DNA of 64,000 bases, taken from Mustelus asterias (lineage: Eukaryota). This document shows positions 2,150 to 39,265 of the stretch, piece after piece. The notes under the pieces were generated by a model that saw only the letters and a program-made list of their open reading frames with translations, was not told the DNA's origin and ran no database searches. Every line of letters starts with the position of its first letter. Position 1 is the first letter of the stretch. The stretch lies in contig NC_135830.1 of the NCBI RefSeq assembly GCF_964213995.1, positions 11,408,001 to 11,472,000 on the forward strand, written 5' to 3'. The translations under genes and the position numbers were made by a program.

Positions 2150-5100
2150 CGCGGGAGAGTGAGAACAGGAATCGGTGGAGAATGAATGCGTGGCTGAGGG
2201 ACTGGAGCAAGGGACAAGGATTTGGGTACTTGGATCATTGGGACCTCTTTAGGGGCAGGTGTGACCTGTTTAAAAAAGACGGGTGGCACTTGAATCCCAG
2301 GGGGACCAATATCCTGGCGGGAAGGTTGGCTAAGGCTACTGGAGAGACTTTAAACTAGAAAGGTTGGGGGGAGGGAATCGAAATGAGGGGACTGAGAGCG
2401 AGGAGGTTAGCTCGCAAATAGATAAGGAATGTAGACAGGGTAAGAGGGAGGTTAGACGAGTGATGGAGAAGGGAAGTGCTCAGGCTGAAGGTCTGAGATG
2501 TGTCTATTTTAATGCCAGGAGTGTAGTGAATAAAGTGGATGAGCTTAGAGCGTGGATTGCTGCTTCGAATTGTGATGTGGTGGCCATTACGGAGACTTGG
2601 ATGTCTCAGGGACAGGACTGGGTGCTTCAGGTGCTGGGTTTTAGATGTTTCAGGAAGGACAGGGAGGGGGGCAAGAGAGGGGGGGGGGAGTGGCACTGTT
2701 GATCAGGGATAGTGTCACGGCTGTAGAGAAGGTGGACGCCGTGGAGGGATTGACTACGGAGTCTCTGTGGGTGGAGGTTAGGAACAGGAAGGGGTCGGTA
2801 ACTTTGCTGGGTGTTTTCTATAGGCCACCCAATAGTAACAGAGATGTTGAGGAGCAGATGGGGAAACAGATCCTGGAGAGATGTAGGAATAACAGAGTTG
2901 TCGTGATGGGAGATTTTAATTTCCCAAACATAGATTGGAATATCCCTAGGGCTAGGGGTTTGGATGGAGAGGAGTTTGTTAGGTGTGTCCAGGAGAGTTT
3001 CCTGACACAGTATGTGGATAAGCCTACTAGAGGAGAGGCTGTACTTGATCTGGTGCTGGCTAATGAACCTGGACAGGTGGAGGATCTCTCGGTGGGTGAG
3101 CATCTTGGGGATAGCGATCATAATTCTATCTCCTTCACGATAGCATTGGAAAGAGATAGGATCAGGCAGGCTAGGAAAGTGTTTCTCTGGAGTAAAGGGA
3201 AATGCAGTGTCATCAGGGAGGCAATTGGACGGGTAAATTGGAAGGAGGCATTCTTGGGGAAAAGTACCGAAGGAAAGTGGAGGATTTTCAAGGAATGTTT
3301 GTCTGGAGCTCTGCATGACAACGTTCCGATGAGACAGGGGGGTGTTGGTAGGGTACGGGAACCGTGGTGCACGAAGGTTGTGATGAACCTGGTGAATAAG
3401 AAAAGAGAGGCGTACAGAAGGTTCAGAGAGCTAGGAGGTGTTAAGGATTTAGAGGAGTATACGGGATGTAGGAAGGAGCTTAAGAAGGAAATTAGGAGAG
3501 CGAGAAGGGGTCATGAGAAGACCTTGGCGGGTAAGATTAAGGAGAATCCCAAGGCTTTCTACAAATATGTCAAGAGTAAAAGGATGAGATGTGAAGGCAT
3601 AGGACCCTTAAAAGGTGAAGGGGGAAAAGTTTGTGCGGAACCGTTAGAAATGGCGGAGGTGCTTAATGAATACTTTACCTCGGTATTCACGGTGGAAAGG
3701 GATCTGGGTGGTTGTACTGCTGGTTTGCGGTGGACAGAAAGGATCGAGCATGTGGACATAAAGAAAGAGGATGTGTTGGAACTATTGAATGGCATCAAGG
3801 TTGGTAAGTCGTCGGGACCGGATGGGATGTACCCCAGGTTACTGTGGGAGGCGAGGGAGGAGATTGCGGAGCCTTTGGCGATGATCTTTGCATCGTCGAT
3901 GGAGACGGGAGAGGTTCCGGAGGATTGGAGGATTGCAGATGTGGTCCCTATATTCAAGAAAGGGAACAGGGACAGCCCGGGAAATTACCGACCGGTGAGT
4001 CTAACCTCAGTGGTTGGTAAGTTGATGGAGAGGATCCTGAGAGACAGGATTTATGATCATCTAGAGAAGTTTAGTATGATCAAAAGTAGTCAGCACGGCT
4101 TTGTCAAGGGCAGGTCGTGCCTTACGAGCCTGGTTGAGTTCTTTGAAAATGTGACCAAACACATTGACGAAGGAAGAGCGGTGGATGTGGTCTATATGGA
4201 CTTCAGCAAGGCGTTCGATAAGGTCCCCCATGCAAGACTTCTTGAGAAAGTGAGAGGGCATGGGATCCAAGGGGCTGTTGCCTTGTGGATCCAGAACTGG
4301 CTTGCCTGCAGAAGGCAGAGAGTGGCTGTGGAGGGGTCTTTCTCTGCATGGAGGTCAGTGACCAGTGGAGTGCCCCAGGGATCTGTTCTGGGACCCTTGC
4401 TGTTTGTCATTTTCATAAATGACCTGGATGAGGAAGTGGAGGGATGGGTTGGTAAGTTTGCTGACGACACCAAGGTAGGTGGTGTTGTGGATAGTTTGGA
4501 GGGATGTCAGAAGTTGCAGCGAGACATAGATAGAATGCAAGACTGGGTGGAGAAGTGGCAGATGGACTTCAACCCGGATAAGTGTGTAGTGATCCATTTT
4601 GGCAGATCCAATGGGATGAAGCAGCAGTATAATATGAAGGGTACCATTCTTAGCAGTGTAGAGGATCAGAAGGACCTTGGGGTCCGGGTCCATAGGACTC
4701 TTAAATCGGCCTCGCAGGTGGAGGATGCGGTCAAGAAGGCGTACGGCGTACTAGCCTTCATTAATCGAGGGATTGAGTTTAGGAGTCGGGAGATAATGCT
4801 GCAGCTTTATAGGACCCTGGTTAGACCCCACTTGGAGTACTGCGCGCAGTTCTGGTCACCTCATTACAGGAAAGATGTTGAAGCCATTGAAAGGGTGCAG
4901 AGGAGATTTACAAGGATGTTGCCTGGATTGGGGGGCATGCCTTATGAGGATAGGTTGAGGGAGCTTGGTCTCTTCTCCCTGGAGAGACGAAGGATGAGAG
5001 GTGACCTGATAGAGGTTTACAAGATGTTGAGAGGTCTGGATAGGGTAGACTCTCAGAGGCTATTTCCAAGGGTTGAAATGGTTGCTACGAGAGGACACAG

Positions 5101-5360
5101 GTTTAAGGTGCTGGGGGGTAGGTACAGAGGAGATGTCAGGGGTAAGTTTTTCACTCAGAGGGTGGTGGGTGAGTGGAATCGGCTGATGTCGGTGGTGGTG
5201 GAGGCAAACTCGTTGGGGTCTTTTAAGAGACTTCTGGATGAGTACATGGGATTTAATGGGATTGAGGGCTATAGATAGGCCTAGAGGTAGGGATATGATC
5301 AGCGCAACTTGTGGGCCGAAGGGCCTGTTTGTGCTGTGGCTTTCTATGTTCTATGTTCTA
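2150..5360 (+). mobile_element. Young CR1 (HER1-like) LINE, 5'-truncated within ORF1, complete ORF2 and 3' tail
   Basis: ORF1 esterase-like C-terminus (MNAWLRDW...DGWHLNPRGTNILAG) ending 2358; APE endonuclease (YFNARS, ITETW, GDFN, SDH) + RT (GVPQGS, FADD); (ttctatg)n tail 5341-5360. Confidence 0.95.
2462..5278 (+). CDS. CR1 ORF2 (APE endonuclease + reverse transcriptase), one frameshift in G10 run at 2679-2688
   Basis: ORFs 2364..2702 and 2645..5278 join at KRGGG|VALL; no other disruption seen. Confidence 0.85.
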
Positions 5361-7879: not shown

Positions 7880-8104
7880 TTACATGTGAACTCTCAGGTA
7901 TGTCAACAGGTTGGGCAAACAGATAAATCCCTTCCTACACGCTGAGCAGGTGAACAGCCTCTCCCCAGCATCAGTGTGCTGGTTTACAGTGAGTTGAGCT
8001 GAACCCAGTCCCAAAGTCTCTTGTCAGTGTGAACACGTTGATGGGATGTTAGTTCCTCCAATTGTCTACAGCACTTCCTGGAGTTGAGCATTCAAACAGG
8101 TTTC
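7880..8104 (-). pseudogene. Decayed C-terminal zinc fingers cut off from the 9647-10201 ZNF
   Basis: Minus strand remnants [13 protein letters not shown] and [14 protein letters not shown] with indels; homologous to 53270-53450. Confidence 0.75.
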
Positions 8105-9654
8105 AGACAAGTGATCGGTTCCAGCTTTATTTCAGACTCAGTTGAAACAAAAATAAGACGTTTTAGTTGTTCAATTAAACAACAGCCTGTTCCATTTGAT
8201 TACTACCAAAAGCCTGTCTATGTTCGCAGAAAGGAGGTTCGATCTATATTTTCATTTGGAATTCGTGGGGATTTTTCTTCTGATCGCAATGCATTGCTGG
8301 GCACGATCAATGATCCAATCCAAAGTACGCATGAAATGGGGATGCCTGTTTCTCAAAATCCTCCACCTATTATAGTTAATAGGGGGAGAACATACATCGA
8401 CAACCCTGCAAAGCCCAGTGTATACAATGTTGTTTCAACTCACATATGTAATCTGATTGTAAATTCAAAGGAGACAAAATGGATGCCAGTCATTTGGAAA
8501 ACATACTTCCTCGGTGTGATTTGTACATGAGTGCAAGAATGAACCCTGGCCAACGATTTCAAAAAGTCCACACCACAAATTACGAGTATCAGATATCCAG
8601 TAAAGCAACCCCCAAAGAGGTCTTCAAAGTTTGCCATCTGTGAAAGCGCTTCAGCAAAGCGCATATTCAACTACTTAGAAAGGACATCACCAATAACTCT
8701 ATCAGATGCATCACCCACCACCAGAGTTTCAACCGGCCAGGAAACGCACAAGCTGTTGGCTCAAACATCATCCATCGAGAGCATTCCGAAAAGAAAAACA
8801 CGTTTATCTCCAGAAGTATTGCCTGCACTCACTCCCAGGACAAGTTGCAAGTACAGAATAACAATGACTCCCGTACAACATCGGTTGAGTGCTGGACACT
8901 TCTCAACTTGGGAGGCAGAAAACAATGAAGTCCTATACTACATGCAGAAGACCAGTGGTGGTGATATCTAAGGATAAGGCAGTTGCTCCAACACCTCATC
9001 AAGAAGATCCAGTCCAAATGAGCAGACATAAGATGCATGAAACCTGACTGTCTATTTCTCGAAATCCTCCACCTGATGCACCATCCACCACCACAGTTTC
9101 AACCGGCCAGGGAAAGCGCAAGCGTTTGGATGAAACACCATCCATCGAGAGCATTCCACAAAGAAAAATGAGTTTATCTCCTAAAATATTGCCATCACTC
9201 ACTCCCAGGACAAGTTGCAAGTACAGAATAACAAAGACTCCCGTACAACATCGGATGAGTGCTGGTCACTTCTCAGCTTGGGAGGCAGGAAACGATGAAA
9301 TCCTATACTACATGCAGAAGACCAGTGGTGGTGATGACCAATCTGAGGATAAGGCAGTTGCTCCAACACCTCATCAAGAAGATCCAATCCAAAGAACGCA
9401 TGAAATGGGGATGCCTGTTTCTGGAAATCCTCCACCTGATGCACCACCCAACACCAGAGTTTCAACCGGCCAGGAAAAGCGCAAGCTGTTGCATCAAACA
9501 CAATCCATCGAGAGCATTCCAAAAAGGTTTGGTTCTGCCTTTCAATTATCCTAATGAACAATGTTTGCATCTTCATAGCTGCTGACAGATAAAGTTAATA
9601 AAATACACATTCAGTTGCCTACAACAGTTAATAAACATTTGCATTACTAAAACA
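8105..9654 (+). pseudogene. 5'-truncated processed retrocopy of an unrecognised modular gene
   Basis: 11-bp TSD aaacaggtttc (8094-8104, 9655-9665); AATAAA 9630-9635 then A-rich remnant; long reading frame with 3 TGA stops and one 5-bp frameshift, stop at 9554. Confidence 0.8.
8705..9527 (+). repeat. Tandem ~365-370 bp duplication (about 2.2 units) within the retrocopy
   Basis: STGQ..K.L..T.SIESIP at ~8705, 9076, 9438; LTPRTSCKYRIT...YYMQKTSGG twice. Confidence 0.9.
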
Positions 9655-10201
9655 AAACAGGTTTCTCATCAGTGTGACTGCGCTGGTGTTTCCGCAGGTT
9701 GGCTAACCGAGTGAATCCTTTCTCACACTCGGGGCAGGGGAATGGCTTCTCCCCAGTGTGAACTCGCTCATGTGCCAGCAGGTTCGATGAGTGAGTGAAT
9801 CCCATCCCGCAGTCAGAGCAGAGGAACGGCCTCTCCCCAGTGTGAACTCTCCGGTGGTTCAGCAGGTTGTATGAATGAGTGAATCGCTTTCCACAGTCAG
9901 AGCAGATGAACGGCCTCTCCCCGGTGTGAATTCGCTGATGTGTCACCAGACTGGATGACTGAGTGAATCCCTTCCCACACACGGGACAGGTGAACTGTCG
10001 CTCCCCAGTGTGGTTTCGCCCATGAGCTTTCAGTTCAAATGAGTAACTGAATCCCTTCCCACAGTCCCCACATTTATAGGGTCTTTCTCCAGTGTGAACG
10101 TGCTTGTGTTTCAACAGGCCAGATGATCGGCTGTAGCCTTGTCCACACTCAGAGCACGTGTACGGTTTCTCCCCACTCTTAACAGTGCTTTTACCTTCCA
10201 T
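9647..10201 (-). CDS. C2H2 zinc-finger protein, 6 fingers, stop codon supplied by retrocopy tail
   Basis: Six intact CxxC...HxxxH fingers with TGERPF linkers; ATG at 10201; acceptor ttcacag| at 10304. Confidence 0.8.
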
Positions 10202-11039
10202 GTTCAAATTCTGATGATACTGAGGTTCTGATGAATTGGGCGACTCTCAGATCCTGATGTGATGTTCAAATTTCCCAACTGCAAATCCTCAACTTCCAAT
10301 ACCCTGTGAAATTGATTTAAAACAGAAAAAAAGAGAGTGAGAGAGAACCCACAAAACTCAAAGGCAAGTTGTGAAATTGAGCTGAATGAATCTGGTAATT
10401 TGTGGAGCTGGTACTAGGAAAAGATGACCATGAAAACAGCTGGATTGTCATAAAAACCCAACTAGTGTCCTTCAGGCGAGGAAACCTGCTCATGCAGTCT
10501 GGGCCTACACCAGGTCTGAACCAACACAAGACTCTGGGATCAATGAGGGGAGCAAGGAAGAGAAAGATAGAGAGGTAGGAGCAGGAAGTATTGAAGGCGA
10601 GGCTTTTATGTATCTCCAACTCGACCCGAGCTTTGAAGGAATCATTAGCTCACCCACCTAGAAGGTCCAGAGCATCAGGTGTGTGTGAACATGAACACTT
10701 CCAGGTTCCCCTCCAAGTAACACACCATCCTATCATGTCTGACATCCAGTGCTCGTTGAGCAGAAATGTCCTCCAATTCAATACTGGGAAGAGGAAAGCC
10801 ACTGTCTTCAGTGCTTGCAACAAAATCCACTCCTCTCTGTTGTAACTCTTTGAGGCTGAACCAGACAGTTCATAAGCTGGTTGTTAAATTTCATCCCAAG
10901 CTGAGGTTCTGATTACATATCACTAAGATTATTATATTAACACCTATAGCAGAGCTGGAGTTATTTTGCAATTCAGCAGAAACAAACCCAAATGAACTGG
11001 TTCAGTCTGAATATGATTCACGCCAAAATCCAATCACTG

Positions 11040-16646: not shown

Positions 16647-17288
16647 TGTTAGGGAGCTTTCCTCGCTGTCCCATTCCTCACTCCCCTGAGAGTCCAGACA
16701 AATAGTTTCAAAGTTTAAAATTGGCCTTTATTCAATCTATAGCAGGGGAAACCTGTTTCCACACGTGACATACAGGCTCCCAGAACAAAGGAATACAACA
16801 GCAATTATATCTTTAACATCAACTATAAGTCATGAACACACAAATCAAAGTTGTAAACGTATTCAAAGGTACTCAATATCCAATCCCAACTAATAGTTCT
16901 GATTACTTCATTTGTTTTCCGCAGTCGTGTTTAACCAATTACAGCAGCCCTACGCTTGCTTAATCACAATATTCAATCAACAGGGCACGTGCACATAGCT
17001 ACATTATCAATAAACACATGTCTGTGTCCTTGACTGTCTGGCACCCTGAGTGGTGGCTTATGACTTCTGTCAAAACACACTGCAGTCCTGGGCTGTTATC
17101 TGAAAGCAGTGATGTTGTAGTTACAGCCTCTTGTGGGCCATCAAAGGCCCCATGTTGATTATTTTTGCAGCTGTGCCTTGCAGCTCCAGCAGTTTCCCAG
17201 GAACTTTGCTGCATTGAATGATTTTTAACCCTTTCGCCATCTATCCCAGGTATTAGTCCAGTCGACCTTCTCTGACCTGCTTCTTACA
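16647..17288 (-). mobile_element. Solo LTR (Gypsy-like, 642 bp)
   Basis: tgtta...ttaca termini; 4-bp flanks cctt/catt; minus-strand TATA (~16805) upstream of AATAAA (~16728). Confidence 0.65.
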
Positions 17289-37272: not shown

Positions 37273-37951
37273 GAATCAATCTTATATCAGTCAGGAGGAT
37301 TGAAATTATTCCTTGTTGTACAGGAGGCCAGATTGATCACTCTTCGTTGAGTGAGCCGCGATTTTTATTTAAACATTCTCATGAAACTCCACTGTACCTT
37401 CCAAGGCCAATATATTCTTCTTGTGTTGCAATGCCCAGGATTGAACATAGTCCTCTTGGTGGAGTGGAACCAGATCTCCATATCACTGAAGCACAATGTC
37501 AAACATTTGTATTCCAGCTCCAACAATCCATTATCTTTTAAAATATTTTTCTTTTCTATCTGTCAAGTAGATTTGGATTCTTAAATCACTGTTCATCCAT
37601 TCCTAGTTTCCCACCATTCAGAATGGAGTTCCCTCCACTAAAGTTTGATCCGATCACTTAAGCTGTCAATGCCCCTTTGCAACTTTCTCCAATTTTCTGA
37701 TCCCATCTATATTACTTATTTTACCACCTTACTTAATGTCATCAGCAAACTTAGATATGTGTCTCTTTAGTCTTTCACCTGACTTGTTTATAAATGTAGT
37801 GAATAGTTGAGGCCCCAGTACAGATCCCTGGCAGAGGGCTAGCCTGAGGGGGCTCCGTCAGTCACATTCTGCTCTCCATTGGTATCCATTATCCCTGCTC
37901 ACTGTCTCCTTCCTCCTAATCAGTTATTGACTGTTTGCATTTCACTGACAG

Positions 37952-39265
37952 ATGATGGATGTCACTGGGCCATCGGAGAGTCTCGATCACCAAACCAGTT
38001 TCATTAATACTCTCTCTGCCCTGTTCAACAAGAAGGATTTCAGCGACATCAAACTGGTTGTGAACAAAAAGCTCAAACTGAATGCCCACAGGTTCATCCT
38101 GGTCGTGCGAAGTGACGTCTTCAGGACCCTGTTGGACACTGAGCGTTGGTCGGATGCTAAAGGCGGGACTGTCCACCTCACTGAGGAAGAGGAGTGCCTG
38201 GATCACTTCCAGGACTTCCTGAGGTATCTGTACAGTGGGAGTGTCACCCTCAGCACCGAGAATGTGCAGCCCCTTCACCGTCTGTCAGAGAAGTACAATG
38301 TCCAGGAGCTGAGAGAAAGCTGCCAGCAGTTCATGTTGGCCAATGTGGCTGCCCCGGGCTCCTCCAACCGCACCATCACATGGCAGAGATATGCTAAGCT
38401 GACTGGCCTGACCCAACTGGAAGAGAAATGCCTCCGGTTGATAGCCTGGAACATTGGCAGCGTCATAAAGTCTCCAGACTGGACATCGTTGGAACGCCAT
38501 GAACTATCTGCTCTCCTCCAAAGGTCTGACCTGGTGTTAGAAGATGAAGTGATCCTTTTCCAAGCCCTGGTGAGTTGGCTCTCTCTGCATCCTTCCCATA
38601 TTAAGAAAATGCTGCACCACATTCGCTATCCTATGATGCCCCCAGAAAAACTGTTTGATCTCCATGCCACAGGAAGCCTACCCAAGGCAATTTCTACTTA
38701 CCTCCACCAGGAGAGTTTACTGGTCTACCAAGTGCACCTTTTGCCCACAGATGCCATCAGCCAGCACCATGATATCAGCACCATCCCATTTACCATGAGA
38801 CTTTATACATCAGGAAGTTTCAGCCACCTCTGGGACATCAAAGGATATCAGATGATGAATCAAACATCTATTGGGACATCGTTCTCAACCAGCCATTTCA
38901 AACTAAAGACTCAATGGCATGTTACTTTTTTCCCAAGAGGTCAAAGGACCCATTGGTCAAGGAACAATTATCCCTATTGCAAGCAAAATGCTGAGATTCA
39001 GCAAGAGGATGAGTTGTCCACTCTCTCTGTCTCAGTGAGTAATTGTGATCCAGCTGGCAAGACACATTCTCACAAGCTGAGCATTCTGCTTTACCAATGT
39101 GTCAATGGTGTGTGGTTTGTGAATGATGTGAAGACTCTCCAGGTCCCACACTCAGAGAATGCTGAGATTAAAGATCTGATCCCCTTGTCAGAACGAGATA
39201 AATACATCAGCAACGACACAATGAAGCTGCACCTCATTGGACAGACCACCTGGAAGAAATGTTAA
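37952..39265 (+). CDS. BTB/POZ-BACK protein, BTBD17-like, single coding exon, no signal peptide
   Basis: FSDIKLVV..LNAHRFIL..RSDVF..FLRYLYSG (BTB); IAWN..LLQRSDLVLEDE..LFQAL..WL..IRYPMM (BACK); acceptor tgacag immediately before ATG. Confidence 0.88.
   Translation: MMDVTGPSESLDHQTSFINTLSALFNKKDFSDIKLVVNKKLKLNAHRFILVVRSDVFRTLLDTERWSDAKGGTVHLTEEEECLDHFQDFLRYLYSGSVTLSTENVQPLHRLSEKYNVQELRESCQQFMLANVAAPGSSNRTITWQRYAKLTGLTQLEEKCLRLIAWNIGSVIKSPDWTSLERHELSALLQRSDLVLEDEVILFQALVSWLSLHPSHIKKMLHHIRYPMMPPEKLFDLHATGSLPKAISTYLHQESLLVYQVHLLPTDAISQHHDISTIPFTMRLYTSGSFSHLWDIKGYQMMNQTSIGTSFSTSHFKLKTQWHVTFFPRGQRTHWSRNNYPYCKQNAEIQQEDELSTLSVSVSNCDPAGKTHSHKLSILLYQCVNGVWFVNDVKTLQVPHSENAEIKDLIPLSERDKYISNDTMKLHLIGQTTWKKC

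Follow-up and report, generated by a model that had tools for sequence, protein, structure and literature searches.

At positions 8105-9654 of the window (the whole 64-kb stretch of DNA that was analysed), a processed insert of 1.55 kb lies between two copies of an 11-bp repeat at the end of a zinc-finger (ZNF) gene. This raises the questions of what the insert was copied from, how it arrived there and whether it still has a product. It had been read from its letters as the retroposed mRNA of a lineage-specific Ser/Thr/Pro-rich host gene, and spliced junctions, intron-bearing paralogs and relatives found only in elasmobranchs support that view. The account proposed here with good confidence is that the insert is a full-length intron-free mRNA copy, from a shark-and-ray gene family of likely NUP153 descent, likely written by a LINE via its poly(A), likely non-coding and likely spread passively.

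Boundaries and copies of the insert

Direct reading of the letters confirmed the repeat that had been claimed: AAACAGGTTTC is exact at 8094-8104 and at 9655-9665 (both plus strand), and the only other occurrence in the 64 kb is a minus-strand one at 16748. The 5' copy was present in all 12 of the other ZNF-flanked loci printed. The repeat is not due to chance, since the zinc-finger tail becomes continuous when the insert and one 11-mer are deleted, and since two unrelated loci carry the same insert between 10-bp repeats of their own. The AATAAA reported at 9630 was found at 9630-9635, with a second one inside the insert at 9597-9602, and the A-rich stub said to follow it lies at 9649-9654 (+). 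This stub was read as the remnant of a poly(A) tail, and unbroken A-runs of 8-9 nt occupy its place in the C18 and C1 copies described below and in three ZNF-flanked copies. A TT/AAAA-like nick is the consensus of L1-type retroposition; the target-site duplications (TSDs) of the window-type, C18 and C1 insertions all start with AA, a loose fit to this consensus.

The insert is antisense at the stop codon of its host, a C2H2 zinc-finger ORF with six fingers (9647-10246, minus strand). The only change to the host protein was the addition of two residues at its end, and the ORF free of the insert would stop at the first codon past the target site, where it runs into a decayed finger. A 438-aa single-exon frame within the ZNF cluster (37949-39265, +) has, by inspection, the look of a BTB/BACK-domain protein.

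A search of the same genome with the first 596 bases of the insert returned 43 matches (40 of 46 candidates were scored), most of which carried the same flanks as the window copy. Thirty loci matching the left flank were fetched. Sixteen were 92-100% identical and all ran on into the insert, and the other 14, at 70-76% identity, were ZNF paralogs without it. The 16 loci are one insertion duplicated together with its flanks by segmental duplication; some of them are near-identical small contigs that may be uncollapsed haplotypes. Contig depth in runs X3 and X4 (organism B) gave a rough estimate of about five copies per single-copy exon. An exact empty site with a single 11-mer was not found, none of the 16 near-identical flanks being empty. 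Contigs from sequencing runs crossed the 5' junction under organism labels A and B and the 3' junction under A, B and C, so the insertion is not an assembly artefact; the runs used behave like DNA and are uninformative on expression.

Two further copies, at C18:86.89 Mb and C1:80.85 Mb, were independent insertions, with unrelated flanks, their own 10-bp TSDs and A-tails of 8-9 nt. Their identity to the window copy over the first 600 nt was 96.7% and 94.3%, respectively; their 5' ends lay within about 15 nt of that of the window copy, and their 3' ends at the identical base. The 5' truncation previously assumed is contradicted by three independent insertions that start within about 15 nt of one another. 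These nearly shared ends, and a leader resembling units upstream of the C5A and C5B genes, indicate that the copy is full-length. Many dispersed copies, which had been named as evidence against a retrocopy, were not seen: only two further independent full-length insertions were detected, the 16 copies being duplicates of a single one. Three independent insertions and a structure derived from exons were thus found, which is not the pattern of a SINE or other non-autonomous element.

Exon structure

The insert mapped piecewise onto loci on C5 and C1, in the order leader-A-B-C-D-E-F-G-B'-E-F-G-B-E, followed by 123 nt from the start of the intron behind exon E. The C5A borders at the insert junctions had the canonical AG or GT at the exact position in 10 of the 11 printed, and the eleventh, the donor GT of exon A, lay one base further on. 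As its pieces are joined at the GT-AG exon borders of intron-bearing C5 genes, the insert is a real processed pseudogene: the introns of its source are precisely absent in comparison to the paralogs, a poly(A) signal, a tail and a TSD are present, and the coding sequence is disabled.

The non-coding leader (8105-8141, +) is the putative first exon, and exon A of C5A starts at an AG acceptor at the matching place. Upstream of the C5A/C5B genes, on the same strand, are nine units that resemble the leader (7-9 mismatches in 32 nt). A tandem array of nine leader-bearing units, spaced by about 10 kb and 95-97% identical, occupies C5:108.23-108.36 Mb. An ISRE-like motif was found 53-63 nt upstream of four of the nine leader units, against a background of 3%, in units that are duplicates of one another and hence not independent.

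The remaining exons are all on the plus strand. Exon A, the first coding exon (8142-8311), was 72.5% identical to exon A of C5A/C5B and matched the basking-shark protein XP_078397533.1 at 66% (aa) over 70 aa. At C16:75,965,115-75,965,297 (L143), a lone exon-A homolog has both acceptor and donor; the 50 kb fetched there contained none of the other family exons, and this homolog could hint at the origin of exon A. The first copy of exon B (8312-8368) had an 87.7% identical counterpart on C5, flanked by AG and GT. No intron-bearing genomic copy of exon C (8369-8581), which contains compensating frameshifts, was present in the assembly, although a homologous stretch exists in a catshark gene model, in isoform X1 (XP_038656217.1) and not in isoform X2. 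Exon D (8582-8704), 90% identical to a truncated C5A exon, is the candidate homolog of the NUP153 exon with the 'TARRILQSLEKMSSPLA' segment.

Module 1 (exons E, F and G; 8705-9006) has borders matching C5 donors and acceptors and carries a 5-bp deletion, placed after 8965 (the earlier estimate was ~8968). Module 2 (9007-9381) consists of a diverged exon B' followed by E, F and G, and contains a TGA at 9045. A last B exon and a terminal E exon (9382-9526) were recognised by mapping to the C5 loci. Exon F encodes the family-invariant motif GHFxAWG..E...YYM. In independent insertions, the last B exon departs from the first at a shared site.

The final piece (9527-9649) was identical at 119 of 122 bases to the intron behind exon E of C5A, which opens with a GT donor and runs on into a GT-rich tract. 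As these 123 nt are the start of that intron, the source mRNA had read through the exon-E donor, past a stop at 9552-9554, and ended at an intronic poly(A) site, with cleavage at ~9649 behind the AATAAA at 9630. The internal tandem modules of 363-370 bp, a point absent from the sequence-only reading, are blocks of exons. The block B-E-F-G starts and ends in the same phase, so its in-frame repetition is possible. Among 13 mapped copies, both independent ones had one module, seven ZNF-flanked copies had two and two had three; the remaining two were broken off after the start of a third module. The insert would thus record a short isoform that consists of repeated exon modules, ends at an intronic poly(A) site and has neither the zinc finger nor the FG tail.

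Other elements were observed in and around these copies. In a subset of the duplicated copies (L038 and L039, on C988 and C145; also C131 and C172), a 1.2-kb LINE reverse-transcriptase fragment lies inside exon C; it matches the CR1-like ORF of the window at 56% (aa). That ORF is an 877-aa open endonuclease-reverse-transcriptase frame at 2645-5278 (+), labelled CR1/L2-like by inspection. The last E exon of the C1 retrocopy is split by a SINE-like insertion (L014). A similar element at C14:40,829,786-40,829,872 (L028) is followed by about 87 nt of this same last E exon, as if the piece had been carried along from the C1 copy.

Coding capacity

The frame had been described as open from the first inserted base to a stop at 9554. 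The stop was confirmed (TAA, 9552-9554), and the coding start was corrected to 8153. The codon at 8153-8155 is ATA in the window and ATG in C18, C1 and C5A; ATA was present in all 11 ZNF-flanked copies translated and ATG in both independent copies. No copy out of 13 had a complete open frame from start to end. The three TGA codons noticed earlier were found at 8528, 8540 and 9045. In comparison with both independent copies, the window copy has lost one base after ~8467 and has gained one or more at ~8542-8546, and the TGAs at 8528 and 8540 fall inside the out-of-frame stretch between these two frameshifts. Both frameshifts were common to the window and three other aligned ZNF-flanked copies; the TGA at 9045 is TGG in the C182 copy. 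The lesions are older than the segmental spread, which favours passive amplification. A Pfam scan of the insert frames gave nothing meaningful, and the window copy is likely dead and non-coding.

A copy of this kind might still be functional as RNA: positioned antisense in what is presumed to be the 3' UTR of a multiplied ZNF gene, it might give antisense or small RNA against the family and thereby favour its own amplification or the loss of its parent. Such a role would agree with the antisense placement directly at the ZNF stop codon, with an AATAAA on the minus strand at ~8126, close to where the insert ends on the far side and with none deeper inside, and with junction-spanning contigs under three organism labels. 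It is nevertheless judged improbable, because flanks and insert diverge equally among the duplicates (about 96-98%), some copies bear the secondary LINE insertion or 3' breaks, and the surviving targets are only 72-90% identical in exons.

Relatives in sharks and rays

A HMMER search with a profile of the modules found 15 relatives in 1.84 billion representatives. The 14 named ones all came from sharks or rays (basking, white, horn, whale, bamboo and cat sharks, and an electric ray); one was unnamed. Their RefSeq labels were uncharacterized, FLO11-like or Nup153-like, and the family proteins are mostly of low complexity. The gene can thus no longer be called unrecognised, as it had been, now that HMMER has found relatives and the family can be traced, with the qualification given below, to NUP153. 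Word-based protein searches for longer relatives, with a 168-aa frame and with the family alignment, found none, the full HMMER search alone having recovered the family, and the ESM Atlas yielded no usable feature match for relative P0002, all structure rows being below the bar. The unnamed relative (P0015, 83 aa) has the exon order F-G-B-C, a junction absent from the retrocopies of this genome; this would put exon C inside the repeated block of a related parent.

Four intron-bearing family loci were found on C5, where a RanBP2-type finger exon and others follow exons E, F and G. The loci are placed around a thymidylate-kinase exon (108.117 Mb), a viperin exon (108.091 Mb) and an IBR exon (108.020 Mb), which were read, from the known vertebrate gene order, as probable parts of CMPK2, RSAD2 and RNF144A. 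The mapping of this neighbourhood used 144 of 630 candidate frames and is hence partial. CMPK2 and RSAD2 are linked, and the pair was called a likely conserved antiviral unit in the accessible portion of a fish interferon study (10.1101/693333).

A second viperin (RSAD2) exon lies at C5:107,910,971-107,911,120 (L077), just upstream of C5D. It is 94% identical in protein to the exon at 108,090,697-108,090,846, in opposite orientation, and may be a co-duplicated fragment or part of a second viperin. At C5:107,958,570 (L044), the junction of the penultimate and last exons of C5D would create a stop codon, so C5D may have lost its basic tail. Dispersed intron-containing pieces of C5A were also observed, at C1:34.720-34.725 Mb, C1:105.584-105.588 Mb and C1071:71.3-74.9 kb (5.2, 3.6 and 3.6 kb, respectively); they are 96-97% identical and bear exons E-F or the zinc-finger exon.

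Relationship to NUP153

NUP153 is normally treated as a single-copy nucleoporin, and in this genome NUP153 proper is located on C2. When the family profile was compared with the PDB, the top 11 matches were NUP153 zinc fingers. An hhalign comparison of the family with 18 NUP153 proteins aligned the last 81 columns (96.7%, E 4e-10), and a second alignment gave 96.2%. Of 25 family proteins scored with a NUP153 profile, 17 exceeded every one of 40 local shuffles made from their own sequence. An F.FG segment and a basic tail were present in C5D and in five database proteins, and absent from the insert and the C5A/B subfamily. Exon phases also agreed: in the family as in NUP153 the penultimate exon is of phase 1-2 and the last of phase 2-stop, and exon D and its NUP153 counterpart both start and end in phase 0. 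With exon D as the query, the NUP153 exon ranked first of 6903 peptides (score 53, next 46), and exon D scored 4.5 bits against the NUP153 profile (shuffle maximum 2.7); in hhalign, exon D alone aligned to NUP153 weakly (probability 7%, E 0.005). Overall, the expected NUP153 exon ranked first for four of seven query exons and not for the other three, for one of which it was second.

Since exons A, B, C, E, F and G had no match in NUP153, the family is possibly chimeric; divergence may have made the module exons unrecognisable, or they may come from elsewhere. The Nup153 N-terminal domain PF08604 was detected in none of the 15 family proteins and none of the three insert frames. Each family gene has one RanBP2 zinc finger and not the four of NUP153, and the insert has none; on these comparisons the insert is not a NUP153 ortholog. 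Descent of the family from NUP153 is very probable. In mammalian NUP153 tails, the VFTFG segment presumably corresponds to the capsid-binding residues 1409-1423. The family has a VFQFG segment that aligns with it, which the insert lacks. A human NUP153 FG peptide of residues 1409-1423 binds the HIV-1 capsid, according to the accessible text of one report (PMC9537594).

Search for the direct parent

The independent retrocopies were 94-97% identical to each other, compared to 72-94% to any intron-bearing exon. No near-identical parent was found by DNA searches, by a search with exon F (47 of 47 candidates scored) or by one with the basking-shark protein (97 of 97). Consequently, the steps that involve a multi-module short isoform and the loss of the parent are argued from paralogs. 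C5A and C5B were rejected as the direct parent: they have no exon C and a truncated exon D, their exons E and F are only 72-84% identical, and their distal AATAAA reads TTATAAA. The matches at C1:34.72 Mb, C1:105.58 Mb, C1071, C14 and C16 were rejected as fragments only. In runs X3 and X4, which represent one sample, the long loose ends among those listed matched C5A- or C5C-type introns. In trees, one clade (99/98) united the retrocopy modules with C5A and the C1 fragment, and within it the modules formed a group of their own; the C5D row of the protein tree is out of frame in exon F and its position there is meaningless. The C5 cluster (108.2-108.45 Mb) contains 99% duplicates and an assembly gap at 108,400,834, so a parent in unassembled sequence is conceivable. 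It is somewhat probable that the direct parent was lost or rearranged, and quite possible that it resides in sequence missing from the assembly.

Against C5A, the terminal exon E had 19 differences in 89 bases, whereas the adjoining intron had 3 in 122 (Fisher p 1e-5). This discordance is not accounted for by simple descent, and conversion between paralogs was assumed. Positive selection was rejected as its cause, synonymous sites differing from C5A as much as replacement sites (pS 0.12-0.37 and pN 0.08-0.28 for exons D, E and F). Total dN/dS against C5A was about 0.6-0.8, with a mis-framed B exon included.

Alternatively, back-splicing or exon repetition might have produced the repeated modules in the RNA of a gene with a single module, C5A for instance. 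The G-then-B order is non-collinear with C5A and C5B, which have one block each, the assembly contains no multi-module gene, and the intron piece at the 3' end matches C5A at 97.5%, all of which such an origin would accommodate. It is very improbable all the same: the difference between the first and last B exons at one site in independent insertions implies different templates, the retrocopy modules cluster apart from C5A and the C1 fragment, and a basking-shark gene model has the same repeated layout (A-B-E-F-G-B-E-F-G-B-E). Least credible is the earlier suggestion of a non-autonomous mobile element or a viral mRNA, to which the fixed ends of three insertions and the 18 loci in the assembly might point, as the pieces correspond to exons of chromosomal genes whose introns are GT-AG, the relatives are annotated in sharks and rays as host proteins, and there are three independent insertions only.

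Proposed history and significance

The history preferred here, a retroposed and passively spread mRNA of this family, starts from C5, where four loci of the family, all with introns, flank CMPK2-RSAD2-RNF144A. Exon phases, and four matched segments that are collinear, point to a NUP153 duplicate as their origin. This duplicate, made at the DNA level, would have founded the family before the split of sharks and rays and would have retained a single N-terminal exon and a single zinc finger along with the FG/basic tail. One member may then have acquired tandem genomic copies of the frame-symmetric block B-E-F-G, and its short isoform would read past the exon-E donor to an intronic polyadenylation site, without finger or FG tail. 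The short isoform was retroposed at least three times, as the window-type, C18 and C1 copies attest. Heritable retrocopies require expression of their source in the germline or early embryo, which must therefore hold for this isoform. The window-type copy landed at the ZNF stop codon and was multiplied together with its flanks, all ZNF-flanked copies examined being without the ATG; duplicates later gained or lost modules and took up a LINE. The direct parent would since have been lost or rearranged, or lie in unassembled sequence.

The insert resembles other processed pseudogenes in its lack of introns, its poly(A) remnant, its 10-11-bp TSD, its disabling mutations and its later segmental duplication. 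It differs in that its template was an intronically polyadenylated multi-module isoform and in that the direct parent is absent from the assembly. Segmentally duplicated LINE-made retrocopies have an example in the equid LCORL retrocopies, as far as the accessible text describes them (PMC10249811). The closest RefSeq layout is that of XP_078397533.1 (basking shark LOC144680443), which has the same first exon, repeated modules and no zinc finger, but lacks exons C and D and falls outside the E-F tree clade of the retrocopies and C5A. Full-length family members share with NUP153 an N-terminal exon, a RanBP2-type finger closest to those of NUP153, the F.FG segment and an RKIKTAV tail; the order of these parts and the exon phases agree as well. 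The Pfam domains of NUP153 are PF08604 and PF00641, with PF10599 in many tetrapod members. The family proteins, in contrast, have 160-810 aa instead of about 1450, one finger instead of four, few of the FG repeats, a new conserved GHFxAWG motif, no Pfam Nup153 match and a location adjacent to viperin.

The accessible literature on NUP153 in combination with sharks, paralogs or viperin contained no description of a NUP153-derived family in elasmobranchs. An elasmobranch-wide family of shortened NUP153 paralogs beside viperin is likely new, the retrocopy itself being ordinary in kind. Retrocopies such as retroCHMP3 and those of APOBEC3 are likewise duplicated, truncated copies of virus-used host factors or antiviral genes; in the accessible parts of those studies they are expressed and tested, whereas the insert here is broken (10.1101/2020.08.30.273656, 10.1101/2021.04.27.441704, PMC7263822). 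A putative antiviral role of the family, suggested by linkage to CMPK2-RSAD2, is offered as a hypothesis only. A bolder version, regarded as rather unlikely, is that this fast-turnover NUP153-derived cluster in the CMPK2-viperin locus encodes interferon-linked nuclear-pore decoys or competitors that kept the F.FG segment and basic tail, the parts of NUP153 with which viruses and import factors interact, and that the retrocopies are the sole record of a lost germline-expressed member without the tail. The position of the family at the CMPK2-RSAD2 pair and the capsid-binding FG segment of NUP153 make the decoy hypothesis directly testable. For the family, the retrocopies preserve the exon structure, the start region and the intronic poly(A) site of a gene that is missing from the assembly; its absence means either that the gene was lost recently or that the assembly has a hole.
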